Below are positions 5,635-63,050 of a stretch of DNA of 64,000 bases, piece by piece. Within the stretch, counting starts at the first letter, position 1. Every line of letters starts with the position of its first letter. A model generated the notes under the pieces. It searched no databases, had not been told where the DNA came from, and worked only from the letters and a program-made list of their open reading frames with translations. This DNA comes from a virus, in IMG/VR virus record IMGVR_UViG_2757320370_000007, positions 1 to 64,000 of that record, one strand, 5' to 3'. The position numbers and the translations under genes are program-made.

Positions 5635-5890
5635 GTTAGTTAACGACTCCTTTCTTATATATCTTTACGAAATATTGATTTGATCAAATCTTTAGTTATT
5701 GATCTTTGCTAATTGCATTTGCAAAATAGCTAATAAAATCAACACAATACTCAAATCGGAACGACTGAGAAGAACTAATAAAATTGAAAATGAAGCAACA
5801 ATCCAGAAGTATAAATTTTTGATTAAATTCACCCTCTCTATTCATCATTATATTTATTAATCTATGTATAGAACAGGCGTTACCCCGTTC

Positions 5891-6148
5891 TCATATTCCC
5901 AATAAAAACTCATCTATACTGTTGTCTAAAACTTCATCTGGTATTGATTCAGTGGCTGTATTTAATTCAAACACTTCACTATCAACAACTACACCTTTAC
6001 TCCTAATCCTGTCTCCACCAGAAAACATCAATCTCAATGCCTCTCTAACTACATCACTTCTATCCTTGTGCTTGGGTAATTGTTCAAACGCCTTTATTAA
6101 ATCTTCATCTTTATCCGGTCTCAACCTTGCTCTCGCTACTATTTCCAT
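5891..6148 (-). CDS. Ribbon-helix-helix protein, ParR-like adaptor
   Basis: ARLR...RSDVVREALR; overlaps the 3' end of the actin-like gene. Confidence 0.7.
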   Translation of the reverse strand: MEIVARARLRPDKDEDLIKAFEQLPKHKDRSDVVREALRLMFSGGDRIRSKGVVVDSEVFELNTATESIPDEVLDNSIDEFLLGI

Positions 6149-7083
6149 ATACGAGCACCTATCTTTCCGTATCCTCTAATCTGGGACAATTGATCAAAAA
6201 GGATTTTATTGGGTAGGTTTAAATAGTTGTATATGAACCGTGCAGCACCTCCGCCAATTAAATAATGATCAAATCGAATATTCAAACTCTCAATTTCATT
6301 TTGTATTTGCTGTGCCAACGCTTTGAATGCTTTGTTTATCAGTGGTTTAATATCCATTCCTTCATATACACCGGATACAACGTGTTGATCCATTTCATAC
6401 TTTGCCGGAGACTTTCCTATAGAAGCATGTAAATAACTCTGCAATAACTTGTATGCATTTTCTACACCCAATAGCAAGCCAGCCGATTCTTTCATAATCT
6501 CCATCTTGTCTAAGCCAAGTAATCCAAGAGTATAAAACCCCAAATCCACAGCCAATATTTTTGATTTGGCTACCCTATGTTTTTCTATGCTTCCATCTTG
6601 ATTTAATATATAATCCATAGCAATACCATATCCTTGAGGAACAACTTTACATCTGTTTATGATAAGTTTGATTTGATTGTTACTATTTTTACCTTTACGA
6701 ATATTATATGTACCGACTTCATTCAAACTAATTATCTTATTTTCAAATTCGCTCTTCTGTTTAAAATAAAAATTTAATGGTAATCCGGTTAATAAATTAA
6801 TAGGATTCGATCTGCTGATAGCTCCAATTGCTGTCTTAAGAATGATATCGCTTGTTTTAGCTTCAGCCTTATTATTGTTCATTGAAAAATACTTGATGTC
6901 GCTATGACGTAATGCCAATTTCCCTACGAACATCTCATCATCAAAGACATAATCATCTGCTTTAATGTTCATGTCGAACATCGGTTTTGATTCTCCAATA
7001 ATTGATGGCTGCAAATACGATCTCTTACCGTTTCTACCCTTAGTCCAACTAAATCCTAAATCAATTTCACAATTATCGATCAA
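6139..7083 (-). CDS. ParM/StbA-family actin-like ATPase
   Basis: IDLGFSWTK, TGLP, VVPQG, VDLGFYT, IGGGA; likely TTG start at 7083 after GGGAGG. Confidence 0.85.
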   Translation of the reverse strand: MIDNCEIDLGFSWTKGRNGKRSYLQPSIIGESKPMFDMNIKADDYVFDDEMFVGKLALRHSDIKYFSMNNNKAEAKTSDIILKTAIGAISRSNPINLLTGLPLNFYFKQKSEFENKIISLNEVGTYNIRKGKNSNNQIKLIINRCKVVPQGYGIAMDYILNQDGSIEKHRVAKSKILAVDLGFYTLGLLGLDKMEIMKESAGLLLGVENAYKLLQSYLHASIGKSPAKYEMDQHVVSGVYEGMDIKPLINKAFKALAQQIQNEIESLNIRFDHYLIGGGAARFIYNYLNLPNKILFDQLSQIRGYGKIGARIWK

Positions 7084-7161
7084 GGTATAATCCTCCCATG
7101 TGTATAGATTTGGCTCATCTTGTATAGATGGGTATACATGTAGCCTTAAGCCCATAAGAGA

Positions 7162-7200
7162 ATTATACCACGCATTATTTAATATGTATATGTTTACTTT
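7162..7200 (-). promoter_or_regulatory. Phage-type promoter AAAGTAAACA-TATACA-N17-TATAAT driving parM/parR
   Basis: Same architecture recurs at 14891, 30993, 45027 and 63051. Confidence 0.75.
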
Positions 7201-7260
7201 ATTGATTATTCACTCTTGATAAAATCTGTATTTTACGACATTTTAGTGGTCATAAAACCC

Positions 7261-8574: not shown

Positions 8575-8624
8575 TCATTAATCCTCCTATTTTTCTTTAT
8601 AAAAGCAGCCTTTTAAAACGAAAG

Positions 8625-11277: not shown

Positions 11278-12648
11278 TTAGTTCTCCTCTTATTAATATT
11301 TTTAGTCTATATAATCTACCGCCGACCGGAAAATCTCATCAAAAAACTCATTGTTTCCTGCATATCCACTCATATATGACAACATACTTATTAAATCTTC
11401 ATTGCTTTTTTTAAGAATGATCTCATTCATTCTTATTTCATGAAGATCAACATCCTCTACCAACGAGTCATTTTCATTTTGCTATTCTCATAGTTTTGTT
11501 TTATCTCCTTTAAGTTATTATTTAACCGAACAATCTCTTCATCCTTCTCCTTTAGTTTCTTCTGATAATACTCAATTTCACATCCAATACATTGTCCATA
11601 AATGTATGCTGGGTTATCTTGATGTGTCTTGCATACTTTTGACATATGTTCTCCTCCTTATGAATCAGGTATTTGATCAAGAATTTTACTCTTCTTCAAT
11701 ATAAGTTAGTAGATACTTTACATCCTTTTTAATATTCTTACTCTGAACATTCATGATCTGCTGTGCCAATTCAAAACTGATTAATTTTTGATGAGCCATT
11801 TCTGAAACGTTGTTCATTAGGTGAGCATAGTCATAAATGTTCTTTGCACAGCCAGTAAGGTACTTCATCTCTGATTTTGATGGTGACAACATAACATTTT
11901 CTATTTGTTGCTCTTCCGCAATTTTATTGATTGCATTGCTCCAATCAGTGATATCTGCACTCGTTTTATTATTTCGCTTAGTCATTATGCGCTCCCCCAT
12001 CTTTTGATAAATCTAGACTTTCATTAGAATATTAATACCATTCCTCTTCTTCTGAAAAAGCATTGTAATTAACGTTTATTTTCGTATAATCACTAACCTT
12101 TCTCTCTGCTACATTACTTCCCAATTCTCGATGATACTGACAGGACTCATCTTTATGTATGCATATCTGATTGTTCCACATTAATCCTTCTGATGCAGTT
12201 CCTTTATGACTCCAATGTGATTCTGCTGAATAATGTTTGCTTGGATAGCCCCATCCAATACCTACATCACATACCAGCGTCTTTTTGAAAATTTCTTTTT
12301 TCACAAACACGTCTGCGTCTTGTTTAGACTCATTACACTTATTTTGCCAATATGTGCAAAATACATAATCGTCATTACCACTTTTGTTAGCGTAAATGCA
12401 AGTTGAACAATTCAAGATTCTTTCTCCTCCTTCAGCTTCTTAATGTCCCTAAGTAACACTCTGATAAATCTATCTCCGTCAGATGCTCCCCATTCCTTGC
12501 CATTCACCAATAGCGTTACCCAATTTCCATCATCAACATATTTATAAGTACTACCATTGTTTGCGATGGTCTCATACTCAAAAGTTTCTTTAAATCTGCT
12601 CATCATTTTCTCCTTTAGTGTTTTAATAAAACTTGTCTTTGATTAACT

Positions 12649-13494: not shown

Positions 13495-13991
13495 TTAGTT
13501 TTCTCCTTTTTGTTCATCAAATTATGTTTTTATGTATTTTCAGACTACAATTTTATAAAACTTCCGTTCATATGACTGTTTGCGATCCTCAGAAACATAA
13601 GCGTAATCACTATTTTTACTCATATTGACAACCGTATCTCCTGAAACAACAAACTGTAAATTATGATATTGAACGATTCTGTAAGGATATGTATTAGTTA
13701 CTCTTCCAGTTTCAACTGCACGTTTAATTTTGAAATCAATTTGATCATATGTATCACATTTATGAGCACTATATGGACAAAGTTCCTGATATTGTTCTCG
13801 AACCAATTGTTTAATCTTCATTGATCAATTCCTCCATTCGAATGAATTTTTCTTTGTCGTATTCACTGAAGGTAGACTCTATATTTTGGTCAAACTTCCC
13901 TTGATTATATGCCATTTGATAATGGTGTCTTCTGATTACATCAAATCGACTGGACCAAATATACGAACAACTAAATTATCGATAATCTTTT

Positions 13992-15708: not shown

Positions 15709-15719
15709 AGATATAATGC

Positions 15720-16265
15720 TTACTCGAATCTCTTTGCTCCAAGCTCAATTTGATTGTTTGCCTCAATTAGAATCTTTGGTTCTGGAGCATGATCATTTTC
15801 CCAGTTATCGGGCTTAACAACTTTACCAACTTCATTATAATGTGGCTCCCCATCGGGAAATATTTTTCCCATATTGGCCTTATGCACCAGATTAAAAATC
15901 TTATCCGGGATGATGCCTGTCTCAACAAAACCGCCATTTGCGAAATATAAAATATCAGTAAATGCATCAATTTGACCAATTAGTTTGTTGTCAGGGAATG
16001 GTTTCTTGAGTTGCTTATCATATGTTTTCTCTGCATTGAGGATTAGTTCTGCAAAGAATCTATCGAAACGCTCCTTGTCTCCCGCTGTTGCGTATAGCAG
16101 CTCGATTACTTCCTCAAGAATAAATGAAGCTCGATTCATTGAAAGCTTATCAGAAAGTTCAGTTGGGACTTCTGGGGCAGGACAATTGAATGCTTGGTGA
16201 AACTCACGGACTTGTTCGAATTGAGTTTTTTCTGCTTGAAATGGTTGTTTTATCATGTCTGTCAT
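15720..16265 (-). CDS. MazG-like all-alpha NTP pyrophosphohydrolase (dUTPase-like)
   Basis: VREFHQAF, EEVIE, DAFTDILY, VHKANMGK, GKVVKP. Confidence 0.85.
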   Translation of the reverse strand: MTDMIKQPFQAEKTQFEQVREFHQAFNCPAPEVPTELSDKLSMNRASFILEEVIELLYATAGDKERFDRFFAELILNAEKTYDKQLKKPFPDNKLIGQIDAFTDILYFANGGFVETGIIPDKIFNLVHKANMGKIFPDGEPHYNEVGKVVKPDNWENDHAPEPKILIEANNQIELGAKRFE

Positions 16266-24448: not shown

Positions 24449-24763
24449 TATTAATCATCCTTTTTATTTTATTTATGTTCTGATCAAAGATACATTTTAT
24501 TTACTTCACATTTTCCCAGTTCTAAAACGTCTTTCCATCATTTTTTTGATTCCATCACTATCTTCTAGTGTTTTCTTCACTTCTTCATTTGTCGACATAG
24601 TATCAATTAGGTCATTAAAGAATTCTAATTCTACTCCCTTAAAAATCTTGCCAGCCTTTGTTCGTAATTCGCTTTTTTTCATTATTGTCTCCTTCATACT
24701 CTTAATAAAATTTGACTTTCGTGTGCTTTTCAGTGTTAGAAATCCCTTATAAAACAAGGTTTT

Positions 24764-29765: not shown

Positions 29766-31040
29766 TTCCTCCTTTCTAAATCAAACTTGTATTCTATCAG
29801 GTTTTTATTTTGCTAATGCAGCAAGTTCTTCCCATCGTTTTCTCACATTTGGACTAGTCATTCCATCATCATTTTCTAGTTTCTCTTTCGCTACTTTCCC
29901 CACCTCAGGTTTCCAATCTTCTATCCATTCACGCACCTGATTAATTAAATCATACTGGGGATAAAGAAGTTTGCTGCCATCAACGATTCCAAAAGGTCCT
30001 TCAATTCCTTTTGTTTTTCTTATAAATTCCATCCCAGACCAACCGCATTGAAATCCAGTCATACCTTGCTTTGAAGCAAAATAATTGAACATTGCAACCG
30101 TTACATTGGCAAGTGATTCAGCAATTGTATTGTAGTCATGACTTTGATTTTCTTGCTCATGTAAATAACTAATTAATTCTTCTTCCGTTGTAGGCCAAGC
30201 ACCATACTTTCCATCTTTCAAATAAATCATCCTTTTTTATATGTATTTTTAGTTACTGATGAAACAGTTCTTTTACGATGGAATGTACCTCTTAAAGCCC
30301 AATAGAATCAATGCTTTCTCAAATCAAATTCCCTCAAAGTATCGGCAATCTCATCACTTGAAGCAAAACTCGGCTTTTTGTGATTAACCTTACCACTCAA
30401 CCTTTTAATGTATTCTACATCTCTGTCTGATCCAACTTCTGGACCAACGTAAATTGTTTTGTCTTTCATATTTCCACCCACTCAACCTAATATGTATAAC
30501 AGCCCTTGCGATACTGTTTTCCTTTGTACTTATATTTAGCAATAAAAGTTTTTACGAGTACTGTTCCGTTGGCAATCTTTTCTAAAACCAATGTTCCATA
30601 CTTTGTCATCCAACGAATCTTGCCCGTAAAGTTTAAACCGGAAACCTCTCTTGCGAGAGATCTCCAATTAACTCCACTTTCGATGCAGCGTTGTAAAGAG
30701 TGCTTACTAAACTTAATTTGTGAGGTATTCATAAGTTTCACCGTTTCTTAGCAGCTTTCAAATCTCGTTGCTTTTTATTTTTGGTGAGAGGGCTGCCTCC
30801 CTTTGCCATAGATTTGTCAGGTAGAATATAACCGAAAATCAATCCTTCTTTTTTACAATGTACTTTGGCTTCATTCTCGGCTCCGAGTCGATCTGTAGAT
30901 ACAAAGTCCTTGATTACCTTACTAGTTCCACTTTGAGTTGTTGCGATTCCGTAGAATTTAGTCATATGTATTTGATCTCCCTTGGTCTCTTTATTATAGT
31001 TTATATTATTTATTTTGTATATATGTTTATTTTATAAATA

Positions 31041-34734: not shown

Positions 34735-34796
34735 TCCATCAACTCTTTCATATGTATTTTCAACTCATGAAACTATTCTTTCATCAACACTCTCTA

Positions 34797-41088: not shown

Positions 41089-41888
41089 ATTCTCACCTCC
41101 TTAAGATTTGATATTATGTATCACACTTCAAAGCACTCATAACCCAAGCCGTTTAAATATTGAAATTGTTCGGCAACAACTTTTCCATCCTCGTCTCTGA
41201 GACCAACAACGCTGTCATAATTAAGATCAATATAGATACCGTGTTCGTCTGACAGTTTGTCTAATTCTTTTATAAATTTTGAAATCCTATTTAAATCCAT
41301 TAAAATTCCTCCAATTTTATATTTATACTTCAATTTTGACGACACGATGAAATACCTCTTTCGTGAGGAAATATGGTCTAAAAAAGCCTTATTCTATAAG
41401 GGTTTTTAACTATGTATTTTTAAAATCCTCAATAATACTCTTCTTTGTTCTTTTTGAACTCAACTCCTAGAAATTCGCATACTTCCTTCTTAAAATTATT
41501 ATCAGAATAATCATCTTCGCCAAATTCACCATTTACGAGTCGATGTTCCAGTTCTTCCAACATGACCTCTTCTGGACTCCATTGGTCTTCTAATCCGTAG
41601 CAAGAGCAATGTGACCCATTTACTTCATATAGTTTCCCATCTTTTAAGAATAGAACCCAAGCAGCACCAGAATAATTGTCGTTTCCATACGAGGCAAATA
41701 GTACGGCTTCCTCTTTGTGATTGCTTAGTGCATGATCTTGTGTTTCCCATGACTCAAAACTACCAAACACTTCTTCCATATTGCTCCAATCATGTAGGAA
41801 TATTGGTTGTTGATTGATAATTTCTTCGAATGTTTTCATTTGATTTCTCCTCTTATTATGTATTTTTACTTTTACATTGAACCTATTG

Positions 41889-42249: not shown

Positions 42250-44136
42250 TTTCGCCCATCTCCTTTAGTATCGTTTTATATTCCTATGTATTAATAAAAA
42301 TCAACAACATGCAATTCATAATCTCCGAATATGTTAGCCTCGATATCTTGTAATTGGTGAGTGTATTTATTTCCCAAGACAACAATATCTTCTGTAATAA
42401 AAGGAATGTTCGCGTTGCTATCCGTTTCATATACTGTCAACCCCACAAGATGCGAAGCAATGAAGCTTTTTCCTCTGTTTGAACTACCCTTGAACACCCA
42501 AACTGGTCTCTTTTCTTTATGTCTGATTGTCTGAGTAAATAAATCCATATTAACGGTATAGTCGCCACACGGATAGTAACTATCTCCACCATCATACGAA
42601 ACCTCGAAAACTTTATTATTGATATATTCACTGTTGTAAGACTCTGGTAAAATGTCATCGATGTATATTTGCTCTTTAGTTGTGTATGTATAGCCTTCAA
42701 ATTTTTCAATTTCTTCTACTTCAACCTTTCCCCACGAAGCGGAGCACCATCCAGAACCACATTCCCCTTGCTCTTCCCATAAAGTGATTTTAACTTTTCT
42801 TTTATCTTCTAGGATTCCAAATAATACATGTCTTTCAAATTCTGTATCAACATATTCAAAATCACAATTATGTCCCGATACGGACTCTCCAATATACTTT
42901 TCAATTCTCAATCCAACAATCTTCATATAAATCCCCTTCAATAATATGTATTTTTATTTTATATTTCTAAATAAAATGAGGGTTTTAAACGGTTTCATTC
43001 TTCACACAATCTTACCTTATGTTTCTGAATCGTCTCTTCGTCCAAATACCATAGAACTGAACCGTGTTCACTTCCAAAATACAGTCCAAATTTATCTTGC
43101 ATACTTTTGCCAACAAAAGCGTATTTAGATCCACAACCGTTCAATCTCACCTTATTAGATGTCTCCAGGTGATTCCCTTCAACATCATAAATACCTGTTG
43201 GTAATCCTATTGGTATCCACTTATCAGATATGTAACATCCATGACCTACGTCCATTAAATCCCTCCTTTACGTAACTTCATAACCAACAATCAGACATCT
43301 AGCAAAGTCCAATGGCTGCAATTCATTAAGGATCTTAAATTCGTCTTTGTAATTTGTACTCATGCAAATACCATTACCAGAAAATCCTTTGCAATGAGAT
43401 ATTAAGTTGAATTGCTTATTCCAATTGTCTATTGGCATTTTATCTAGTGCATCTGCAATTTCCTTAGACACTTTTACTTTGTACAACGATACTCTCCTCC
43501 TTATTCAATTTCTGCCCCATGCTCAACAGCAAGTCTCTAAAATGATTAAAATCTCCATAGTTTGAATATCCACTTGAATATGTATAAGTTCTTGGCTTAG
43601 TTAGATTATGTCTTTGATATTCTATGTATCTCTTAGCTTCATCTAGAATAAAGAAGAATGCAACTGGTTCATAATCATCCTTAATCCATGTAGCAGCATA
43701 CCACTCAATACCATACACTTTAAAATAATCATCATAGTTCATAACAAATATTTCATCATCATTTGCTTCAAATGTCTCATACTCCATCTCTCTATAGGGC
43801 TTGATTTCAAATGGTGGATTCTCTTCTCTTCGTTCAAACCATTCTTGAACCAATTCTTCTTCAGAATCATACCAATGCTCATAGTCATAATCCGTTGTAA
43901 ATTTCAGAGGTAACCCATCATAATATTCAACTTGATCTTGATGATATGGAATATATTCTGGTCGATATGTTTGTACTGCGTGAATAGCATTACTGGTGCA
44001 TACATTATCCTTTGCCCCTGGATATTGCTTTTCAGCAAACAGTTTTAAAAACTGTTCTTGGGGATCTGTTAGCTCAATTTCAATATTTTTCATATTTTCT
44101 CCTTTCTTGATAAAACAGAACTTTTACAAACTCACT

Positions 44137-44988: not shown

Positions 44989-46152
44989 TATGAACCTCCA
45001 CTAATATGTATTTGTCCTACAAATCAATCATATCACATTATTTAATTATAGTATATATGTTTACTATATAAATATTTTTAACCAGCATCCACAATCACAG
45101 TTTAGATTATGTTCAATCTTTTTCATGTTTGGTACTGGCAATCTAGCTGAAGGAAAACTATATGGCCTATTCGCATATTGTAATCTTCCTTCTTGATATT
45201 CTATTTCTTCAAGAATTTCCTTTAGTTCTTTTTCAAGTTTCCGTTTTGACTTAATTGCAATCTCATCTCGGAGTTCAAGCGCTTTTGTCTTTAGTGTTTT
45301 TGTGCTAACAAGGTATAACATTTCTCCCCAGACACCCATTATTCACCTCTTACTTTTTCATTTTACTGTTAGAACTGTACCCCAATATCTGTTCCAACAC
45401 TCCAACAATCATAGCCTTAAACTCTGGAGTCATTGTTTTCACTTTATCAATTTGACTTTCAAGCTTCTTATCAGCAATAATGTCTCTAATATCCTCTATT
45501 AATTGTGAATTTTCGTCTTTCTTATCAAACAGAGGATCTTTTTCTAATAGAGTAATTAAATATTTCAAGTTGATAAAACGTAAATGCGCGAAGTATATCT
45601 AAAAGTTCTATTGATCCGTCACTTTGTACTGGGACAAGTATGGTTCTTTTCACAGTTAATATTCTCCTCTCTTCGTGAAATCGGGCTTTCATGTGCTTTA
45701 TTTTTCATCGAATCTTGGTCTGTGCATCAATCGGTTAATTCAAATTCGCCAACAACTTTCACATCTTTCAATTCTGTGTTTGACCTAAGAGATTCGTCTT
45801 CTAACATCTCCAAGTCTTCAATATCACAAGGCAATTGCTCTCCAAAACTTTCTTCCCAAACCTCTTTGCTAATCCAAATTTCTCTTTCTAAAGTTACTTT
45901 TATAGCTACTCTTTTCATTTAACACCCTCCTCTTACTTTGTAATTTGTGTCTATTGTTCAGTATCTTCGCACTGTGCATTACTTATCGGAAACATTTCTA
46001 TCAAGAAAAAAACATTAGATGGAAAAATTGTAGACGTTAATGGAACGCCAAAAAGGAAATTCGCTTTATCTGGTCCAATTTTACATATAGTACATAAATG
46101 TGTTATATGTATTATATGTATTATTTATAAATGTGTGGAGGGCGATAATGAA

Positions 46153-46440: not shown

Positions 46441-47159
46441 AATACAATTATACTTCTCCTTTATAAGCATTATTAATTTATAAACATCAATTGAACCTGA
46501 TGCTTAAGTAGGGCTATATAGTTGTTGTACTGTTTTTTTTGTGTCAGCCATTTCCTTCTAATGCGCTATATGCGTCTACTGCTCAGTATCATTAATCGGC
46601 TCTTCCCACAACAAATTAACATTACACAAAGGGCAATTATCAGTCCCAAAAGCTACCTGATGTTTATTATTAAGCAGCTCGCATACAGGACATTCGTATT
46701 TAATGTATGGTTGCTCACCTTTGTTTTCATAATGATTTTCAACCGGTTTTACGTATGCGATTCTTTGGTAAGCATATTTTGAATCTGTTACTTTACCATT
46801 AAGCATATCCTATCCACCTTTCTTTTCTCAATTTGTGTTTACTACACTTGATCAAATCAAGCTTTCATCAGTCATTGTCCTTTCACATAAAAACTCTATG
46901 TTAATTCCTCAACTTTAAATATCTTCTTGTTGCAGTTTATGCAAAATGCCAATTTCCCTGATCTATGCTTTAAATAATCATACACCTCGGTGTTATCAGC
47001 CTCGCTTCCATCAAAATTAGTTCTGTAGTGTACTGTTCCAGACACCTGTTCTTTAATATAATATCCCTCGCTAGAATTGCAATGAGGACATTGAGTTATA
47101 GGTGCTTTAGATTTTCTCAAATTTCACACTTCCATTTCTTTGTGAAAGTAAACTTTGAT

Positions 47160-49058: not shown

Positions 49059-49285
49059 TTTCTACTCTCTCTCCATTTCATTATGAAATATTTGTTTTAC
49101 CAAGATTAATCTAATCTTGTTTGGTAACGACATAGTCCGTAGAAATCCTTTCGCCATTCAAGAGCAAATTCACTCTAATACCAGACCCGCTATAAGATAT
49201 GTAATCTTCTTCTATTTCAATTGAGAGATTGTTCTTTAAATATTCGGTCAACTCTTGTTCGTTCATTCTGTCACCTCATCTTTTA

Positions 49286-49516: not shown

Positions 49517-51380
49517 CTCTAATTTTCTCCCCTTATGAAATGCCACTTTTATTTAGTCATTCTCTCAACCGACAAGGTGATTTTATCCCCATCTTTCAAA
49601 TGTCCAAATCCCTTAGATGTTAATATTCTGTCTACTTCTTCAAGAAACATTTCTTGACTATATGATCCATCGTTAATTTGGAACTCCCACTCATCAGTTT
49701 CTTCTATGTAAATAACCTCTCCAGTAATTTTGTCCATTTCCCATTCATCTCCATTTTTTTGATAAACTTCACATTTCATCCGATTGTAACTATCCATTCT
49801 TCTGTAGAAGCTCTAAAGACTTTGTGAATTACTTTCCTATTATTTAGTTCTTTGCTAATAGAATTAAGCAATTCTTCTTTATAAACCCTTGTAGCACCTT
49901 GATTGATTATCTGATCAATACCCTTCTTCCAAGTTATCTTGCCCATCAATTTCACCTCCTGATTTTTTGATCAAAGATTCGTTTTTACTTAAAATCCAGT
50001 GATACCGAGTCAAACTTGTTATCAATAAAACTTGGTATAACACTCAAGAACTTATCCCACACCAGTATTGTCAGCTCTAATTTATCGCCAACCTCTCTAA
50101 CCTCTTTCACAACACCAATTGCTTGTTCTTTGTGTACAAAAGGTTTATTCTCAAACGCTACCAAATCTCCATCTCCGTACTTTGGAATCTCTAAAATCAC
50201 TTTCATTTCTCGTCATCCTTTCTAAGTGAAAGATTGGTTTTATTAATATCTCCTTGCCTTATTGCGTATGCTCACAGCTAAAAGATAGTTTTCTTCTATT
50301 TCTTCGTCCGAGTAGTCACCCTCAAAACTGTAGTTCTCACTTGCAAAAGCGTGTCTAATCATTTCCAACTCTTTCTCAGTAAAATAAATTTGTTTACCAG
50401 CCATCTTTCCACCACCCTATGAAAGGCTAATTTCATCTTAGAATTAAACGAACATATTTTCAAATTCACCTTCTGCAAGCCAATATTTAATATACAGTCC
50501 TTCGTGTGGACTGTGATATAATAGATAACCATCGTCTCTTTTATATAAATCTATATCAGAATTGCCATAGGCCCAAACACATCTTTCTCTTTCTCCGGCC
50601 TTCATTTCTTTCAACTGATCGATATACATGCCCTTGCTCATAATCTTAACCTTTTCTTTGTTACCATCTTCAAGGCCAACCATAATTATAATATCATCGG
50701 GGAATTTATCTTGCGTTACACTTTTAATTGTGCAATTTTGATACTCCAGATGTTTAGTATCCAACATAATGTTCGTTGTCTCTCCTTAATCGATCATATT
50801 TTCGAAATGTCTAATTGCTTCTTCCGGATTATAACTTTGTTGAATGCAATCTATGTAAGTATCTCTAAATCCTTCGTTCTCACTAACGCCTATAGCATCA
50901 AACCATCTTTCAATTATGACCTCATATGCTGAGGCTTTTGCTCGATATTCTGCTGCTTTTCTAATTGCATCTTTAATTTCGTTAGGAACCTTGGCGCCTT
51001 CGTCTGTATCATATATGATTCCTTTTATTTCCTTGATTGCTTCATCAAGAGTAATACTTGTTTTCTTGTTCTTCTTTGATCTCAATAAGTGATCAACATC
51101 GCAATACATATCAGAATCTATAATATGTGGCTTATTATTGAATCTTGAAAGATACTCCCCAATTGAAAAATCTCCTTCGCCATACCAAAACTTTCTTCTG
51201 CCATCCCATTTTATAACATGGGCTATTTTATCCAGATCAAATTCCGAAACAGCGCGCGCCTCATCTTCATTATTAGCTACAACAAGTAACTGTCTTTCTG
51301 AATTTTTCGGACGTTTTTCTTCAACAACTAGCCATCCACTCAGCAAACAATTTCACTCCTTTCTGTGTAAAAGACTCACT

Positions 51381-52217
51381 TCATCTAAAAAAATCTCTAA
51401 ATGTGTTTCCTATCGTTCCCCAAAAAGAGTGCGGCTCCTTTGCTAATTTAGATACTTTCTTAAGCACGGACTTCAATTCTGCAATTAGTGTCTTCTGCTC
51501 TTCAATTAGTTCTAAATTTTCATTATAAATTCGTTCTCCGATTTGATTTATTAGATCAGGTAAGCCAATCCTAATTAAGTCGCTCTTTTTTAAATAAATT
51601 GAATACTTGATTTTAGATTCATACAAATACGTAAAGTTGATACCCGCTTCACTCGTTTCTAGCGTTTGGTTCCATTCGTTACGTTTTTCTTCCGACATTA
51701 ACAATACTGGATTTAATTCATAGTATGAGGCTCTTTCATTATTGTTCTCTTCAAAATCTACTATGGTTCTGTATTGTTCTTTTTTAAGAGCAACTCCCCT
51801 CCTCTCCAATACATCAATTACAATATCGCCAGCGCTTTCTGACAATTTAGTAAACTTCCATCCGAATCTTAATGTTCTTTCTTCCAAGTCTACGACTTTT
51901 GAAAATAGAGATCTTGATAACTCTAAACTTTCACCGTTCTTTACGAGTTCTCGACAGTACGGCTTTGACTCCCGAGTCTTCGAATCATAGAACTTATCCC
52001 AGTTAATCGGTTTATAATTTTCAATTCCTTCTTTGAACTTATTGAAATGAGCAAATAACTCTCTATATTTCTCTCTCAACTTTAGTCTCTCAGTTCTTTC
52101 TTTCCCGGATCGAACCCCTAGAGAAAAAGTCACTAAACTCAATCCCAAACTGATTAATGCACTTATTCCTGTTCCATACCAGTCAAAGGAACTACTCACG
52201 ATCTTTCCTCTTTTCAT
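51381..52217 (-). CDS. Hypothetical protein with N-terminal TM helix; start and stop both overlap junction sites
   Basis: ORF track; sites at 52216 and 51367. Confidence 0.7.
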   Translation of the reverse strand: MKRGKIVSSSFDWYGTGISALISLGLSLVTFSLGVRSGKERTERLKLREKYRELFAHFNKFKEGIENYKPINWDKFYDSKTRESKPYCRELVKNGESLELSRSLFSKVVDLEERTLRFGWKFTKLSESAGDIVIDVLERRGVALKKEQYRTIVDFEENNNERASYYELNPVLLMSEEKRNEWNQTLETSEAGINFTYLYESKIKYSIYLKKSDLIRIGLPDLINQIGERIYNENLELIEEQKTLIAELKSVLKKVSKLAKEPHSFWGTIGNTFRDFFR

Positions 52218-52229
52218 AAAAGAATTGTT

Positions 52230-52487
52230 TTATTTTAGCCAGCTTCCATACTCACAATTTCCTTTTACAACTACCCTTTCGTCAATACGATGGACATCAA
52301 ATTGGGGATTCTCTTTCTGGTATTTAAGAACCTCGTTATAAGTATCCTCAGTTGGAATAATCGAAACACCACCGGCTTTAAACTCAGTACCAATAACAAA
52401 ATCAAAAGTCAGTGGACGATTATGATGAATTGACCAACAACGTTCTACAACCGATTTTGCCTCAATGCTTAAATCCTTCCATTCCAC
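52230..52487 (-). CDS. Hypothetical protein, paralog of 14540..14833
   Basis: AAGGAG RBS; PTEDTYNEVLKY. Confidence 0.75.
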   Translation of the reverse strand: MEWKDLSIEAKSVVERCWSIHHNRPLTFDFVIGTEFKAGGVSIIPTEDTYNEVLKYQKENPQFDVHRIDERVVVKGNCEYGSWLK

Positions 52488-52510
52488 ACAAACATCTCCT
52501 TATGAAAGTA

Positions 52511-53167
52511 TTATTTCAACAGCTCATTTATATTGCTTCTAATTTGTTTTTTTACTAATTCTGTAGATGTATCAATGTGTATCCCCACATCACAAATTTT
52601 ACTCACACCATCTGAATTCCCTGATATCTCATCAAAAATATGAAATATATTATTCAATGCTGTTTCTACGGTGTCTGTATGAATATCGTTAAGTTTGTAT
52701 TTTTCTACTAACTCTGTGATCATTTCGTCTCTGAAATCATAGGGATAATCTATGAAATACATAAATTCTTTAACGTTAATAGTTCTGTCTTTTGTTATGT
52801 ACAAAACAGTAGGTTTGAGTTTTCCAGAGCCTAGATCTCTATAAAAAAAGGACGTATATATATTACTTGAATTAATAAACTCTAAGAATTCCGGATTTTG
52901 AACTGAAGTTTCAGAGTATAGATCCTTGGCAATGTCTTCAAAATTACTGATTCCGATTATTGCAGGATTATTGTTAATAATAACTTCGAAGTTATTCAGA
53001 ATACGTGTAAATCCTGCTCCAGTTAACCATCCCAAGGGGTACGGTAGATTCCTTAATTTTTGATAATCATCCATTACTCCATTTTCTTTCCGTCCATTCA
53101 CAAACATTCTGGTGTCGGTAACTAGAATAGAAAAGTCCCTACCAATGTAACCAATCACAACTGTCAT
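52511..53167 (-). CDS. Ntn-hydrolase / proteasome-beta-like protein
   Basis: M-T-VVIG.IG.DFSILVTDTR N-terminus, later K and AG motifs. Confidence 0.55.
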   Translation of the reverse strand: MTVVIGYIGRDFSILVTDTRMFVNGRKENGVMDDYQKLRNLPYPLGWLTGAGFTRILNNFEVIINNNPAIIGISNFEDIAKDLYSETSVQNPEFLEFINSSNIYTSFFYRDLGSGKLKPTVLYITKDRTINVKEFMYFIDYPYDFRDEMITELVEKYKLNDIHTDTVETALNNIFHIFDEISGNSDGVSKICDVGIHIDTSTELVKKQIRSNINELLK

Positions 53168-54146: not shown

Positions 54147-54153
54147 CTCATAA

Positions 54154-54165: not shown

Positions 54166-54204
54166 TCACATTATATAACATTCAACCCCACAGGTAAAGG
54201 CGAA

Positions 54205-54239
54205 AAGAATCGATCCTTATTTATCAGAAATCGACTCTT
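54205..54239 (-). terminator. Probable intrinsic terminator
   Basis: AAGAGTCGAT...ATCGATTCTT stem followed by a T-run. Confidence 0.55.
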
Positions 54240-55472: not shown

Positions 55473-58400
55473 ACCAAATCCATATGAAAGAATAGGAATT
55501 ACTCGCCTCTTTTCTTTCTTATGGATTATTAAAAGCCCAATTTCATCCGATTACTTTTAGTCTTCTGTTATAAAATCTTTACACTCTTTAATTTCATTTG
55601 TATTATCAAAATCTCTTCTAACTTCGATATTGCTTGAATTGCAAAATTCTATACAGATATAATCGCCATCTCCAATATCCACATTGCACTCATGTTCGAA
55701 ATGTTTGCAATTTAAACAAATACTATCAGTGTAAACCTTCATCTTAATTCTCCTTATCCATTAATTCTATTAGCATTTAAATTAAAGAGTGTCTATTCAT
55801 TACCGCGATTATTAAGAAGATGACCAATGAACCCAAATAGTATTGCTTCAGAGAGATAGTCATCTTATTTAATTTATATAGCCACTTGATATGGTAGAAC
55901 AGAATTAACATTGAAAATAGCAAGCCCATGGCTATTTGTAAATAGTTGTGCAGCAAATAACTTCCTTCCTTTCTCTCTACTCAAAATTATATATTACTTT
56001 TTCAATCCAACGGTTCAATTCATTCAAGGTCTGATTCTTTATTTCATCACATTCTTCATTTTCATCATCATTATAAGAACTATATTGTGCTCCATTTTTC
56101 ATGTCTAAAATTTGATAATATTGATAATCACAATCATTCACAACTCTCTTTACGTCTTCAATTGTATTAAACGCAGTGACGATATCATTTAATCCGCCCG
56201 ATGGATAATATGCGTCAAAACCAAAAAGTATATATCTATTCAATTTCAAATCTCCTTTTCTCGATCAAATGTTCATTTTATTAAGAAATAGAAAAGCCAA
56301 ATTTGTCAGTATAAAGACACGCTAACCACTCTGCACCAATTCGTATTCTCAAGTCCAAGTTTAGTGAATTTGCCAATTTTTCAAGGTCTTCATATTGCTC
56401 ATATTCTTCAAGATACATATCATAAACTGGTTCACCTTTTCTCCCTGTCCCTGTATGTATTAAGCGATAAACTTCTTCAAATGGCTCAAGTTTTGCCTTT
56501 GCGTTTTCACCTATAAATCTCCAGACTGTTTCCACTTTTAACTCATCCTTTCTCTTTAAAAAATGTAATTTATACGTTCATTTCAAATTTCTTTTCACCC
56601 AAATAAATAAGGGAAGTAACAGAAGTGCATTGATGCATTAAATTGAAGAATTCATCCCCGTCTAACATATTTTTTTCAACCCACTCACCTTTTGAGATTG
56701 GATAGGAATCATACATCTCTCCGAAAAATCCTGCGGTTCCTGCGGGACCAAACTCATCTGCTCCATCATATTTGTCCGACCTAAATCCACCATCATAAAA
56801 GAGTATCACTTCTTTGTCTATACATTTATCTTCCAACAGCAACGGCAAACAACGTATTGCAGATGATATAGTGCCCAAATAATACGTTTTTTTATCTGAT
56901 GGAACCGCCAATGAATATGTATCTCCCATAAAATCTTCCTCATTTCTCCGTAAAGTATGTACTTCATTCAAACTTATTCATTTAGCACTCTTCCGCACAT
57001 AGGACAGTAATTTATCTTAACACCATGTAATGAGAACTTAGCATTCCAATCTCCAATTTCACTGTCCTCCAGGTAATTGCAACTATTTATAAATACTGAA
57101 TAGTCTCCCTTACCGCTACTCATTAGGCACTTTCTATCTATCAGGGGTTTTTCAGTGCAATAATAACATATTTCCTTGGTTTTACCTTCTTCAATAAAGC
57201 TTAACATATCGTCCATTGCTTGGATTCTTCCTTCGCTCCTAAATGCATCTTCAGACATGATTTGATGATAGTTTAAAATATCGACCACCTCTCTTGCACG
57301 TTTCTTATAATCGTTCGCCCAGGCTATTAATTCTTCAATCATTCTCACTCCTCTCCATATGATTTGATCAATTTTTTAGTTGCTTGAATACCCCAATCTA
57401 ATCTTTCGTTTTCTTTCTGGCACTTTGCTCTCCATTTCTGTAACTCTTTCTTCGTCTTGTCTTCGATACTTATTCCACGCATCGCATCAATAAGGGTCAA
57501 TTTAATATCTACTCTGTCCTGTTGGTTTACTCCTGGTATGTATAATTCAATGACGGAATTGCACTTATCGATAATTCTTACATTTTTAATTCCCCATTTT
57601 CCTAATTCTATCATTGCTCTCCTCCATTATGTTTATCAATTTCAGCAGCCACGTCCAACATCTCTTTAGAAATCTCTCTCAATTTGTCGGCAGTCCTAGC
57701 TGTTCCTCCACGACCACCAAAATTCAATCCACTATGTAATATGTATGAATGATTTGACGAATCTTTGTTACCTTCGTTTTTCTTAATTGTTCCAGATACA
57801 AAGTTTCCTTTTACGATAATCTCATTGCTAAACAAATTCATCTCTCCTTAGATTACTTCTCCGTCATATGGATTATCCATTTTGGCAATGTAGACTTTCT
57901 TTTCTAGATCATACTCCATATAAGCAAATGGATGCTTTTTGTCAGTCTGATAAATTTCCGGTTCAATCGTTAGCTTTGGATTATAATAACAGTCATCGTA
58001 TACTTCAATATAAACACCAGTTTCCTCTGACAATTGATTTAGTTTATCTAAAAATAATTTATACTTCTCTACAGTTATCATTAACCTTTCATCCTCTCTC
58101 TCATGAATTTGCTGTTGCATTAGCACTCTTTAACTTCTACAGAAATGAGTACAAATTTCCCGATGTACTGAGCTAACATGTTTTCAATATTATGTCCTCC
58201 AATAGTCAGGTTCTCTGTACTAAGATAGGATATCGTCAATTCTGAATATCCAATCCAATCTACCTGAACATCTAACTCTCCCATTGAACTTAAAATCTGA
58301 AAGTTAATTGCCTCATTAAGCGTAAATTCTTTTTCATTTAGGTAAATTTGAATAAAGACTAGAGGTGATGAAAAGTGTTTGAAAATCCCATCACCACCAA

Positions 58401-60617
58401 TTTCTTTTCGGTGATAATCACCTTCATAGTCTGGGAATTCAATATCAGTTAGTTGGTTTGCTATGTATTCACCCAAATTTGTTCCATTGATGCTAATACC
58501 ATGGTGGTCTTTCTCAATGATTCCACTTATAATTATTTTACCATTTACCATTTTTCAACCTCTTCTTCCGAAACAACACTAAACCCAAAGTTGACAGTAC
58601 CCATTCTATTAACATAAGCATCTTCATCGGCTTTATAAATGTAATCTTGTCCTCCATATCTAAAAACATCGTCTTTCTTAATATTTTCAGGTTCTATCTT
58701 ATACCACTCCTGATTTTTCAGCACTTCTATTTCCATTCTCGGCACCTCTCTCATTCTTTATTATTCTTCCTTTTAACTCATCTTACTCATTCGTTAACCA
58801 CATGAACCTGATCAGGTGTAAACATTGCATAAATTCTCATCCTGTTTTTCTTTATAATCTCCATCTCTTGTCCAAGTAACTTCTTTATGGCTATTGCTTT
58901 GATTTTGGAACTTCCATCCCAGTTCATTCATCGTTGCAGCATGGACTAAATAATCTTCGAATGACTCATATTCAAACACTCTAATTTCAAACTTCATTTT
59001 TGTCATTTAAACACCTCTCTCATTCTCCTGTTTTCTACCATATTGTCGGTTTTACTTACCAGGGAACCCGATGAAACACGCATTTCATCGTACCAATAGG
59101 CCATCTTTAACATCCATTCCATTACCATCAATAATTCGTCCTTCCCCGTCAGTGATTTTAAAACCTGCCTCTTCAAATAATTCTGTTAATTCATCTTCAG
59201 TTATATTATTTAAAATTTTTTCAGCTCTTTCATATGGTGAATTCATAGTATCCTCCTGCCATGGTTCCCACACATACAACCCATGACCGTCACCCACCAT
59301 TTTATATAAATCCGAACTGTGATCTCCTGAGAATCGTTCATTCAAAAAATCAACGATAGCCTCTCCATAATATTCGTTCACGTTCTCACAAACCAACTTG
59401 TCGTCAACAGACTCTCTATCATAATTACCTACATTAATAATCTTCACTCTTCATTCCTCTCCTTTCTTTTCTAAATTCATTAAAGTAATCCAATCAACTC
59501 TAACTTGATTATATTTTTAGTTTCATCATCCGCAATGTTATAGTATTCCTTTAATTCCTTAACCTTATGTATCGCGTCCCATTTTTGAATATCTTTATTA
59601 ATATTACTCAGTCTATTTGCAGCATTCTCAACATCCTCGATAGTAGTCCTGCTTCGGATAGTAAATTTGTTAAGATAGGACCCATCTCCATTGAGAGTTC
59701 TCATCTTCATCATTAAAATGATCTTCTCTAATTCATATGGATTAGGTTGTTTCATTATTTCACACCTCCATGAATAACGTTAGTCAGCTTCTTAGTTCCA
59801 GTACCAAAATACTCTCCAGCACTTTTAAACTCTGTGTATGTAACTGGATCAAATCCTTGTGATCGTGCATGATTGCAATAGCGACCATACTTCTCTTGTG
59901 CGAAATAGCGTTTGTCTTCTTTCATTTCCCGATATGTAATCATTTGTTTAACCCATCCTTCCTGAACAACCCTACTCGATAAAACATAGAACTGTCACCG
60001 TGCATTATAATTGCACCATGTGTAACATTGCATTTTGGGCAACTCAAATGTGTAACTCTTTTGTATAAACGAACATGTCGCCAATCTTAAATATCCGTTT
60101 CTAAATCATAACAATTACAAGTCACTATGTAGCCCATTTCAACCCTCTTCCCCAACACCTCATTACTGGATTCACAATGATCATCTCTTTGATATCAACA
60201 TCATACACGGGAGGCTCCCCATATGATCCTTCACTCATACACACAAAATCTCCGGCCTCAATTAATACATTTATGTATTTTGCACCAAAATCTTTTTCTG
60301 TGAAATGAACCCTATATTTATAGTCATTCGGATACTTTAAGTGTGATGGATGTAAAACTTCAGGATAACTCACCTGAATTTTTCCATAATCATAATTCAA
60401 TCCCACTTCCCCCTCTTGTCTGTTCTTACATTATCGTAATTAATGGCCCAATGCTCACAAAGTCTTCGATCTATCTTATTTCTCATACGATTATTTTTAG
60501 TCTTAAACATCAAGTAAATTAGCTGCTGCTCTTTTTTATAACTTAACTTGCAGCACTTTCTCAATCTTTTAGGCAACTTTTGACACTGTTGATTTGTTAA
60601 CTGTATTCTGATCACCT

Positions 60618-61076
60618 CTAATTAAATTTATACAATGTGACTTCATAATCCTCAAATACTTCATCAATCATCTTATAAACTTCGTTCCAATCAGCCCCAC
60701 CACGATCTGAACCCATTTTAAAAGGTAGCGCTACTGTAAGTTTTTTCGATTTTGAATAATCCCTTAACTTGTATAGTGCAACCTCTAATGCTAATAAATT
60801 CGTATGTTGTTTATCTCTTCCGAATCCATGTTGTCCAAAAAGATTAGCAACACTCTTCATGTCACAGGATATGATTTGACACTCACCAAGTAAGCCTGTA
60901 GCATATTTACCTTCTAGACACCTAAGACCATATCCAGCAAATACATGAGGATATCTATTCTTGATTTGGAGAGCCAAACCTGATCCCATCATGCCCTTAC
61001 AATTTACTTGGTGGCCTATAATGTCTTCAGTTGCATCAAGCAGATTGCCTTCTATAATCTTAATCATCCAATTCAT
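60618..61076 (-). CDS. Macrodomain (ADP-ribose processing) protein
   Basis: EGNLL, HQVNCKGMMGSGLA, NLFGQ, GSDRGGADW. Confidence 0.9.
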   Translation of the reverse strand: MNWMIKIIEGNLLDATEDIIGHQVNCKGMMGSGLALQIKNRYPHVFAGYGLRCLEGKYATGLLGECQIISCDMKSVANLFGQHGFGRDKQHTNLLALEVALYKLRDYSKSKKLTVALPFKMGSDRGGADWNEVYKMIDEVFEDYEVTLYKFN

Positions 61077-61261
61077 CCACCCTATGTTTTCTTATTTTCA
61101 CCACATCTTCTTCATAGTCATACCAAATATCAAGTACGTCTCCCCCACCAACATCCAGAAGTTTTCTTAATTCTTTTGGTATCACGACTCTACCTAAATC
61201 ATCTAATCTTCTTACTGCTTTGCTACTTATCACAATTATCCCTCCTCATGAAACGTGCCTT

Positions 61262-61954
61262 TTACAGAATTTTGATCTTATCGTTGTACAACAACCTTTG
61301 ATTATCTGGCAGTTCATCATCATGATGAAAATGTCCAAAGAACCATTTTTCATATTCCAATTTGGACTTAATCACGTTAAAGTATTTATGCATCTGGTCA
61401 AGTTCAACGTTGGTGTTGTATCGCTGTATAATCCACGTCAGAGCATCATGAGAACATGTGTGAGTCAAGACATAATCGACAACCCAATGATTCTTATCCA
61501 AGTTTCTAATACCTTCTTGATATTCCTCAGAGCTAGGCATTTCACGTTCCCACCAAGATACATCAACCTTGCGATACTCTTTGTCATGTGAAGCAGACCC
61601 ACCAAATGTGAAGAATTTCTTTCCTTCGATTTCGAATACTTGACCTCGCATTAAATGGATTATACTCGGCGTAATATGATGGACGTTACCACCATTCCAT
61701 TCTGATACAGGATAAGATTCCAGGAGATTAAAATTCTCATGATTCCCATCAATAAAAAGCGTAGTCCAAGGTTTATTTGTGAGCCACTTCAGCCAGAAAC
61801 GATCTTCAGCGTCATCAGCCCATAGCAAGCCAAAGTCACCAACAATAATGATATAATCCTGTTTGGTTAGAGTCTTGCCTTGAGGGAAGTTCTTTGTGTT
61901 AAATCGACTACCTACACTTACTGAACCGTGAATGTCTCCTGTTATGTAGATCAT
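61262..61954 (-). CDS. Calcineurin-like metallophosphoesterase
   Basis: GDIHG, GDFG, DGNHEN, LTHT, FGHFH. Confidence 0.92.
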   Translation of the reverse strand: MIYITGDIHGSVSVGSRFNTKNFPQGKTLTKQDYIIIVGDFGLLWADDAEDRFWLKWLTNKPWTTLFIDGNHENFNLLESYPVSEWNGGNVHHITPSIIHLMRGQVFEIEGKKFFTFGGSASHDKEYRKVDVSWWEREMPSSEEYQEGIRNLDKNHWVVDYVLTHTCSHDALTWIIQRYNTNVELDQMHKYFNVIKSKLEYEKWFFGHFHHDDELPDNQRLLYNDKIKIL

Positions 61955-63050
61955 ACTTTAGGTCTCCCCTTCACCATTAAACTTTGTCGAATAACTTCAT
62001 AAACTCGTCTTTCTTTGACGTTGCATCAATGGTCAACTTTGCAATTTCAGAATTCCTTCCCCATGATGATAATACGGTTGTCATAGCACTTATCTCTTTA
62101 TCTACCTGCTTATCAAACATGTCAATGATTTTCTTGTATTGTGTCTCAGATATCTTTCTCAACTTATCATCACTCCTCTTAGATTGTTATTTCTCTTGCA
62201 TAGATAAGTTCATCTTCTGTTGGATAATCATTTATTATATTTTGATATCCCCAAATCAACTCATGAAATATATCTTCATCTTTCTTCTTCAGTTCTTCAA
62301 CTAATTTCAAATATCCATCCACTTCACAGCGAGTAATTTTGGTTGATAATTCAATCTGCTTTGTTGGTATACAATCAAGTTCTTGGTAACTGTACTTGCA
62401 TACTTCTGATTTGTCGCACCATTCACATGAACAGTCTGCCATATAAATTCTCCTTTCGCATCATAAAATAGACCTTTTATGTTCTAGCCTTCATGCACTT
62501 CAATTCTGCTCATATACAGTCCACAGAGTAATTCAAAGTTTTGTTCAGATTCTGAGTCTAAAAACACTTCATCTTTTTTTAAATCTGCCATTGCTTTATC
62601 GAACACCGTTTTCGCAGTTCTTTCTTCCATGTAATGTCCATGACTTTTTTCTGCTTTACTCCACTCATCATATTCATGAACGTGCCAAATCTCCATTGCA
62701 TATCTCCCTTCTAAATGAAAGAACTATTTCAAGTTATCACAATGATTATCTTTATCCGTTCTAAGTAGAATCTCCAATGTCTTCTGAATTTTTTGTAAAG
62801 TGTTTTTAATATTGTCTTTTCTGTTTTCTTCATTAAATGTAATCGATAACTGAACATCAATTACCATTTTGTCGTTTCCAATGTCAATCTTTTTATAATC
62901 AAAGCCAAACGTCTCATGTGTATTATTCTCTGCTAGTATTTCATCATAAATTCGCTTACTCCAATATTCTCTACTCATTTCTTTTTCTGCTTTATCCATG
63001 CGTATTATCCCCCTCTATAAACTCATAGGTGGTATATAACCACTACAGTC

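Follow-up and report, generated by a model that had tools for sequence, protein, structure and literature searches.

Position-specific centres in a dispersed 18-bp dyad of SPbeta-like phages: possible address-coded recombination joints between early genes

In cassette exchange with lox or FRT sites, only identical overlaps recombine, so that the segment lying between two unlike sites is swapped without deletion. The arms of known tyrosine-recombinase sites measure 11-13 bp. The attC sites of integrons are folded single-strand structures of 57-141 nt which travel with the cassette, and cuts in the centres of SfiI and BglI sites give site-specific sticky ends which rejoin only in the right order, as in ordered assembly. 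The usual account of phage mosaicism invokes illegitimate or relaxed homologous recombination as a rare event, after which selection retains the breakpoints that fall at gene borders; sites dedicated to modular exchange have been proposed in principle since Botstein and, to our knowledge, have never been found. The PeSLs (promoter-early stem-loops) of T4-type phages (Arbiol et al. 2010, PMC2839356) are promoter-plus-terminator cassettes which undergo homologous recombination among themselves and give rise to mini-circles. In this study, a 64,000-nt stretch of viral DNA (positions 1 to 64,000 of the IMG/VR record IMGVR_UViG_2757320370_000007; hereafter the window) was analysed, in which an 18-bp dyad recurs at the gene junctions. 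The strict form of the dyad is RTVAAA-N6-TTTBAY, with two 6-bp inverted arms and a 6-bp centre which differs in each copy. The centres were found to be shared, position by position, with related phages, while the DNA between the sites was often unrelated, a pattern which points to address-coded recombination joints.

The window is G000:C1:4,023,839-4,087,838 of a host genome of 8.54 Mb (49.7% GC) and forms the left third of a low-GC (31-39%) SPbeta-like prophage island of ~176 kb (G000:C1 ~4,023,800-4,199,500), whose genes lie on the minus strand until ~4.136 Mb and on the plus strand beyond. The prophage is a distant relative of SPbeta. It encodes homologues of YotM, YorF, YorJ, YorK, YopQ, YopP, YonN, and YoqD, a Sak4-like annealase 63% identical to SPbeta YorG, a YomM homologue 62.5% identical to SPbeta YomM, and a YopR/MrpR homologue (Pfam MrpR_N_CB and MrpR_C_cat). 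Similarity to the SPbeta-like phages at the DNA level was confined to the helicase region (65.7%, a distant match to Goe11/12/14). No match was obtained when 20 kb of the window was compared with the phage collection by megablast, nor when the genome contigs were searched with the helicase for related loci, and a DNA search among 60 relatives gave few matches.

The strict pattern was matched 28 times in the window against 1.14 expected (standard deviation 1.19, maximum 4, in 100 dinucleotide shuffles), 49 times in the whole prophage against ~3.3 in Markov-1 simulations, and 97 times in the 8.54-Mb genome, half of them inside the prophage. The 6-bp spacing was specific, since TNAAA-Nk-TTTNA gave 78 matches at k=6 and 15-27 at each other k from 2 to 12. 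Information content outside the 6-bp arms was at the background level, with a nearly flat logo, and every centre was distinct within each genome (78/78, 79/79, and 106/106). The initial annotation, made from the letters of the window alone, had reported the 28 strict copies with about one expected by chance; both figures were reproduced, at the same coordinates. The ~23 near matches that it added were only partly sustained. About seven relaxed window sites had a same-centre partner in a relative (Table 1), but the one-mismatch matches in bulk were about as many as chance would give (68 in the prophage, with 63 expected), 17 of those in the window being intergenic or overlapping a gene end. The coordinate from which the annotated array had been said to start, 5667, had no same-centre partner in the relatives. 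In all, there are ~35 sites in the window and ~55 in the 176-kb prophage. The dyad went unmentioned in the SPbeta literature searched. The motif, its fixed spacing, and its placement are confirmed observations.

As for the placement, 44 of the 49 strict prophage sites were intergenic or overlapped a gene end, the non-coding DNA amounting to 10.5%. Read on the coding (minus) strand, the layout was a stop codon (-4 to +12 nt), the site, 14-25 nt, and then the next start; in 14 prophage cases the stop codon made up bases 2-4 of the left arm. The dyads sit immediately 5' of the Shine-Dalgarno sequence on the strand that is transcribed, and the units between them are promoterless, in a single orientation, and contain one to a few genes. 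A position between the stop codon and the next ribosome-binding site (RBS), often with the stop inside the site, had been noticed beforehand and was borne out, including all five cases named. It had also been claimed that the sites spared the thyX-nrd, recJ, and primase-helicase regions. This was correct for the strict sites, which were absent between 13,516 and 24,483 and inside the recJ, primase, and helicase genes, but a relaxed site with a conserved centre lay at 16,236, in the nrd region of that gap. The RecJ-like gene itself (window 31,041-32,700) appeared as two adjacent minus-strand open reading frames (ORFs), 31,041-32,432 and 32,461-32,700.

Four related prophages and one related contig were located via the helicase, with amino acid identities of 86% (G135), 78% (G097), 77% (an IMG/VR contig), 55% (G109), and 52% (G088). 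All five showed the same N6-specific enrichment of dyads, and only ~30% of the ORFs were in common with them. In the matching of centres, only partners with full dyad arms were counted and the reverse-complemented centres served as the control; matching of 10-mers (AA, centre, and TT) was too permissive, with high controls. Exact colinear centre matches numbered 21 for G135 (control, 2 exact anywhere), 29 for G097 (control, 1 exact anywhere), 8 for G109 (control, 0), 2 for G088 (control, 1), and 9 for the IMG/VR contig, out of its 15 sites (control, 0). Of the 28 strict window sites, 24 had a colinear partner whose centre matched exactly (19) or differed at one base (5). Across the pairs of sites, identity stood at 0.53-0.70 for the four degenerate positions of the arms and at 0.92-0.98 for the centre, with the flanks at ~0.3, as for random sequence. 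Picking the pairs for at most one centre mismatch partly forces the centre value, and the unbiased evidence for centre conservation is the excess of pairs over the controls. Since a spacer conserved above the arms is the reverse of what a protein-binding dyad would lead one to expect, the specific centre at each position matters. The initial annotation had read the varying spacer as tolerance of heterology. The opposite was observed, with exact, position-specific centres across helicases 52-86% identical and no centre ever repeated in a genome.

The DNA between the shared centres was frequently unrelated. Slots with little or no tblastx match (<15% covered) between consecutive shared centres made up 11 of 24 in the comparison with G135 and 19 of 37 in that with G097, and the lengths of such slots often differed, as on the two sides of the site at 50,419 (Table 1). 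Furthermore, five ends of homology blocks in the G000 family fell exactly on the outer edge of a dyad.

The same behaviour was seen at nucleotide resolution in the SPbeta clade. SPBc2 carries ATAAAA-N6-TTTTAW between the stop codon and the RBS at many early-gene junctions, and phi3T, Goe13, Goe11, SPbetaL8, and SPbetaL3 gave 24-32 forward matches each against 1 in the control. Comparison of SPbeta with five relatives gave homology blocks (identity of 88% or more) with 149 distinct ends, of which 13 were located within 3 nt of a dyad outer edge, compared to 0.3% of random positions and 1.5% of ORF ends. Within the early region, 19 of 89 block ends lay no more than 20 nt from a dyad edge, and 10 of the 18 strict early sites served as a block end among only 5 relatives. 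When the flanks of individual centres were aligned, the alleles switched exactly at the first and the last base of the 18-mer, in combinations varying by phage. Unrelated alleles on both flanks were present at 23 of the 42 sites common to at least four of the six genomes, compared to 1 of 400 control 18-mers, and three of the four possible flank combinations occurred at 11 of these 42 sites, compared to 0 for the control 18-mers. The check put forward in the initial annotation, whether breakpoints in relatives fall at the sites, was thus answered in the affirmative. A 1,364-nt block of SPBc2 (NC_001884 ~113,664-115,061) identical to phi3T had a dyad at both ends, and several other blocks shared by SPbeta and phi3T likewise ended at dyads.

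We consider it rather probable (about 0.6) that the dyads are dedicated recombination joints which divide the early/accessory arm of SPbeta-like genomes into numbered slots. The near-constant 6-bp inverted arms would be the probable binding sites of a dimeric enzyme, and the 6-bp centre would act as an address, unique in the genome and common to the same-position joint in related phages. Since the centre is unique within a genome and matched between genomes, two genomes in one cell, be they those of co-infecting phages or of a phage and a prophage, would cross over only between joints with the same centre. Since the joint lies between the stop codon, often within the left arm, and the next RBS, exchanges would keep the genes whole and their order unchanged; and since ectopic joints with unlike centres would not recombine, the genome would not delete itself. 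We infer that matching centres are mechanistically required. The centre may be the overlap region of a tyrosine recombinase, or the sticky end left where a nuclease cuts an interrupted palindrome, with ligation or annealing as the next step; although the pattern fits either logic equally, we favour the tyrosine recombinase. The conservation of the centres could be upheld at the cassette level, where a cassette losing its address would no longer spread. A more specific proposal is that of a natural, recombinase-mediated cassette-exchange system of SPbeta-like phages and related large siphoviruses of Firmicutes, in which a phage Cre/Xer-like recombinase (of the YomM family, or YopP/SroD) would act on ~30-80 heterospecific core sites per genome with the 6-bp overlaps as conserved coordinates; this is tentative, at somewhat short of even odds. 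Two ideas of the initial annotation are retained here, namely that the sites delimit gene units, which now appear as the boundaries of exchangeable units, and that inverted arms around a 6-bp centre have the layout of a recombination core site, since the dyads behave as such a site would.

If this is true, co-resident phages would reassort their accessory genes slot by slot, with the genes unbroken and the order kept, and the address set of each phage family would define its possible exchange partners. A dedicated mechanism for modular evolution would then exist, with addresses kept across phages whose proteins are down to ~50% identical, and the turnover of dozens of small accessory genes (defence, counter-defence, and host takeover) at constant gene order would be explained. 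A role would also be found for the orphan tyrosine recombinases, both those of SPbeta-like phages and those of the related large siphoviruses that are described as virulent, and a toolkit for multi-site orthogonal recombination might follow. Even a passive mechanism would leave the conserved address code as an unexplained and easily measured pattern.

A YomM-family tyrosine recombinase would be the lead candidate enzyme and a YopP/SroD-like protein the second. The YomM homologue of the prophage (G000:C1:4,160,293-4,161,297) matches PF00589, as does the YopP-like protein, and the YomM family retains the R, K, H, R/K, H, and Y catalytic residues. The integrase-fold genes lie ~15 kb (YopR-like), ~47 kb (YopP-like), and ~72 kb (YomM-like) beyond the window end. 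In large siphoviruses (Staphylococcus phage SPbeta-like, Skywalker, and Lactococcus phage 949), some of them described as virulent, the YomM homologues are encoded immediately ahead of the tape measure, an unusual location for a recombinase. In phylogenetic profiling, the dyad-bearing phages shared a broad replication-gene backbone plus YomM- and YopR-like proteins, and because the shared backbone is this wide, the association of the dyad with YomM singles out no enzyme. A literature search on yomM, yopP, and SroD returned nothing relevant (Yersinia and unrelated papers only). In the prophage, the YomM-like gene is bracketed by two dyads (extended window 136,408 and 137,461) within a late region which is otherwise dyad-poor.

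Several points weigh against dedicated joints. The conserved arms are only 6 bp long, and a role in expression could also account for their constant position just 5' of the RBS. At the gene level, the test of the G000 early arm gave no significant result, with dyads at 13 of 98 ortholog/non-ortholog junctions versus 3 of 19 conserved adjacencies, and the relatives compared are kin, so that the counts do not represent independent events. In the SPbeta clade, 107 of the 149 homology ends were more than 100 nt away from any dyad; the dyads therefore explain only part of the mosaic. Hybrids between phi3Ts and SPbeta made in the laboratory (MT366946-8, PP526179) had their crossovers within intervals of 1.3-18 kb of identical sequence (bioRxiv 10.1101/2020.05.06.055103). 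These crossovers fit ordinary homologous recombination, and the intervals are too long to be placed relative to dyads. Regarding the enzymes, tyrosine-recombinase candidates with PF00589 (YomM- and YopP-like) are present elsewhere in the genome, as the initial annotation had supposed, but none has been connected with the dyads. In the SPbeta subgroup, YomM has a lysine in place of the second catalytic arginine, which is kept in Skywalker, 949, and SEP9, and since yomM lies in the tail module next to the tape-measure gene, YomM may have another role.

A dimeric regulator of the early genes was weighed against the recombination joints. The dyads would then be operators or stoperator-like road-blocks, and the mosaic joints would be a by-product of short-homology recombination, e.g., by a Sak4-type annealase resolving at 18-bp stretches that are all the identity which diverged genomes still have in common. 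The constant distance of 14-25 nt to the starts and the inverted arms without covariation, as for a double-stranded DNA dimer site, would suit such a regulator; the Sak4-like annealase of the prophage, the majority of homology ends away from dyads, and the origin of the laboratory hybrids in long homology would suit the by-product. However, a dimer site should keep its arms and let its spacer drift, whereas the spacer identity exceeded that of the degenerate arms and the centres were conserved out to relatives with a helicase only 52-55% identical. A dimeric repressor or nucleoid-protein site, which the initial annotation had offered as its alternative, fails to explain centres conserved better than arms. 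Moreover, sigma-70-like promoters were not enriched at the dyads (81 versus 82.6 expected), and the dyad is present in Skywalker, which we take to be lytic (its record gives no lifestyle). MrpR, the repressor known from SPbeta, recognizes an asymmetric box at ~10 promoters that is unlike the dyad (PMC10516654). We therefore regard a regulator as unlikely. The narrower proposal that the dyads are the SPBRE operator of the integrase-fold repressor MrpR/YopR/SroF could draw on the MrpR homologue of the prophage and on SPBRE being likewise a dispersed intergenic repeat (PMC10516654). However, chromatin affinity purification with sequencing (ChAP-seq), which located MrpR upstream of ten SPbeta genes (PMC10516654), gave 10 peaks and not ~30, and what the ten published MrpR-bound promoters have in common is an asymmetric, A/T-rich box of 22 nt with no relation to the dyad. 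For SroF of phi3T, a 26-bp box bound by the monomer has been described (bioRxiv 10.1101/2025.11.27.690993). The SPBRE/MrpR operator was ruled out by the different sequence, and we give it next to no credence. Intrinsic terminators were not enriched at the dyads either (9 terminator-like versus 7.3 expected), and a sigma-70 promoter or an intrinsic terminator signal was ruled out by this lack of enrichment.

The location on the transcribed strand, immediately before the Shine-Dalgarno sequence, could also be that of a small hairpin in the polycistronic early mRNA, placed before each RBS for translation control or RNase processing, and some copies indeed fold well. However, the predicted folding energies ranged from 0 to -8.3 kcal/mol, with several copies at 0, i.e., with no fold, and the arms showed no covariation at their two variable positions (position 3 was Watson-Crick in 10 of 28 copies versus 9.8 by chance). 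A position-specific loop which is kept while the surrounding genes change has no evident RNA function. An RNA element thus seems very improbable, and a hairpin of RNA or single-stranded DNA as the general function was ruled out by the absence of covariation and by the copies without fold. We judge equally poor the prospects of an integron-like capture, which the initial annotation had preferred, and in which a cassette with its own site would be excised as a circle and reinserted elsewhere by a spacer-tolerant integrase. The promoterless, one-orientation units of one to a few genes and the stop codon within the site resemble such cassettes. However, the sites stayed fixed and ordered while the DNA on either or both sides changed, and their centres were position-specific and conserved, not a tolerated variation. 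Since no centre is repeated in a genome, two sites flanking one cassette never match. In addition, the sites span 18 bp, not all of them can fold, and no IntI-type integrase with attI and a Pc promoter was seen next to the array, the only candidates being the distant YomM-, YopP-, and YopR-type proteins.

Each of the known systems compared (PeSL, pdif, integron, SPBRE, stoperator, and lox/FRT) differs from the dyads in at least one defining feature. In function, the nearest are the cassette exchange between heterospecific lox or FRT sites, the PeSLs, the pdif modules, and the integrons, and the joints would be a natural counterpart of the first. The engineered Cre and Flp sites and the dyads are alike in having inverted arms around a 6-8 bp overlap, and the centres, unique within a genome and shared between genomes, would as far as the sequences tell be consistent with the rule of identical overlaps. 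Unlike lox and FRT, the dyads form a natural array of ~55 different sites with short arms, and their recombinase is a candidate only. Of the features of core-type sites, the dyads thus display the inverted arms with a 6-bp overlap and the identical overlaps of partners, and lack the 11-13 bp arms. The pdif modules of Acinetobacter plasmids, served by XerC/XerD, are also few-gene modules bounded by inverted-arm sites with a 6-bp centre and with the recombinase encoded elsewhere; however, pdif sites are 28 bp long with 11-bp XerC/XerD arms, whereas nothing is conserved past 6 bp per arm in the dyads, whose array, unlike pdif modules, is ordered and colinear between genomes. Firmicute dif was included in this comparison. 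The cassettes of attC share with the dyad units the lack of a promoter, the single orientation, and a recombination site at each boundary, but the dyads are much shorter than attC at 18 bp, need no folding, and stay in place. The SfiI and BglI interrupted palindromes have, like the dyads, constant half-sites around an unspecified centre; the joint model would then keep its form with a different enzymology, although such a nuclease was not identified in these phages. SPBRE and the stoperators of mycobacteriophage L5 resemble the dyads as dispersed short intergenic repeats of a temperate phage genome, but they are asymmetric repressor sites with no position-specific conserved core, and the symmetric dyad differs in this from stoperators of the L5 gp71 type, which in a temperate phage all face the same way with respect to transcription; the dyad also occurs in Skywalker, taken to be lytic. 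The PeSLs are likewise short intergenic repeats in variable regions whose modules are shuffled between relatives (PMC2839356). Unlike PeSLs, the dyads have no promoter or terminator signal, are only 18 bp long, and carry position-specific centres which should block recombination between copies.

The same dyad was the top spacing-specific palindrome in Psychrobacillus phage Perkons (17 versus 1.2), Staphylococcus phage SPbeta-like (17 versus 2.6), and Bacillus anthracis phage Skywalker (18 versus 1.9), where the forms were a TAAAA-N6-TTTTA core and ATAAA-N8-TTTAT. The enrichment was weak in SEP9 and 949, and the dyad was not enriched in phages K, SPO1, BSP10, and A511. Between families (SPbeta, the G000 family, Perkons, Staphylococcus SPbeta-like, Skywalker, 949, and SEP9), the sharing of centres was at chance level.

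Table 1. Dyads of the window, with the partners found in the four relatives G135, G097, G109, and G088 and in the IMG/VR contig (strand is given as '.' for all sites)
Feature	Position	Strand	Partners and remarks
strict dyad	7219..7236	.	one-mismatch-centre partners, colinear, G135 and G097
relaxed dyad (last base off strict)	8599..8616	.	exact centre G135 and G097; G097 homology block begins at its first base
strict dyad	12626..12643	.	one-mismatch-centre partner G135
strict dyad	13516..13533	.	intergenic, 21 nt before start; no partner found in relatives
relaxed dyad, nrd region	16236..16253	.	exact colinear centre G135 and G097
strict dyad	24483..24500	.	one-mismatch-centre partner G097
strict dyad, stop codon in arm	27843..27860	.	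exact centre G097, where upstream gene differs
strict dyad	28073..28090	.	one-mismatch-centre partner G135
strict dyad	28781..28798	.	exact centre G135 and G109
strict dyad	29201..29218	.	intergenic; no partner found in relatives
relaxed dyad (one arm mismatch)	29780..29797	.	same centre in full dyad, G097
strict dyad	30259..30276	.	exact centre G097, G109, IMG/VR contig
strict dyad	33092..33109	.	exact centre G135, G097, IMG/VR contig
strict dyad	33742..33759	.	exact centre G097, G109, IMG/VR contig
strict dyad	34767..34784	.	exact centre G097, IMG/VR contig
strict dyad, stop codon in arm	35982..35999	.	one-mismatch-centre partner G097
strict dyad	36162..36179	.	19 nt before start; no partner found in relatives
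strict dyad	37648..37665	.	exact centre G135, G097, IMG/VR contig
relaxed dyad (one arm mismatch)	41347..41364	.	same centre in full dyad, G097 and IMG/VR contig
relaxed dyad	42971..42988	.	exact centre G097, IMG/VR contig
strict dyad	44110..44127	.	exact centre G135; one mismatch G097
strict dyad	45675..45692	.	exact centre G135, G097, IMG/VR contig
strict dyad	46851..46868	.	exact centre G135, G097, IMG/VR contig; slot to 47142 unrelated in both relatives
strict dyad	47142..47159	.	exact centre G135, G097, G109, IMG/VR contig
strict dyad	49083..49100	.	24 nt before start; no partner found in relatives
strict dyad, stop codon in arm	49535..49552	.	identical 18-mer G097
strict dyad	50226..50243	.	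one-mismatch-centre partner G097
strict dyad	50419..50436	.	exact centre G097 and G109; adjoining slots 175 vs 1259 and 1779 vs 489 bp, no tblastx match
strict dyad, stop codon in arm	52216..52233	.	exact colinear centre G097
relaxed dyad	52502..52519	.	same centre G097, in dyad with one degenerate arm
relaxed dyad	55529..55546	.	exact centre G135 and G097
strict dyad	56264..56281	.	exact centre G097 and G088
strict dyad, stop codon in arm	59071..59088	.	identical 18-mer G097; exact centre G109
strict dyad, stop codon in arm	61248..61265	.	exact centre G135, G097, G088
strict dyad	62463..62480	.	exact centre G097

A second low-GC island with SPbeta-like genes, of ~54 kb, lies outside the window at G000:C1:3,222,000-3,276,000. 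It encodes a YonO-like single-subunit RNA polymerase, a YonF-like terminase (50%), a YomI-like tape measure, and YopP-like and YonR-like proteins; the main prophage itself is without a YonO homologue. The dyad enrichment in the second island was weak (13 at N6 versus 5-9 at the other spacings), and no centre was common to the two islands of this host. At its left margin, the window begins essentially at the left end of the prophage, and its first ORF (window 1-567) encodes a Holliday-junction resolvase of the YotM type, with 50% identity to its SPbeta counterpart. In the SPbeta record, yotM is likewise among the last genes at the right end, with only sprB (yotN) after it. A segment of ~390 bp (window 46,070-46,458) was 82% identical to G000:C1:1,223,206-1,223,584, far off in the host chromosome, and may represent a small gene common to both places or a mobile fragment. 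In Skywalker (NC_071046; e.g., 121,013, 146,282, and 153,337), many dyads were preceded by a similar element of ~28 nt, GGG..ATTTT....CCC...TTG, and directly followed by an RBS and a start codon; the dyad of the Skywalker family may belong to a larger repeat that perhaps serves in expression.

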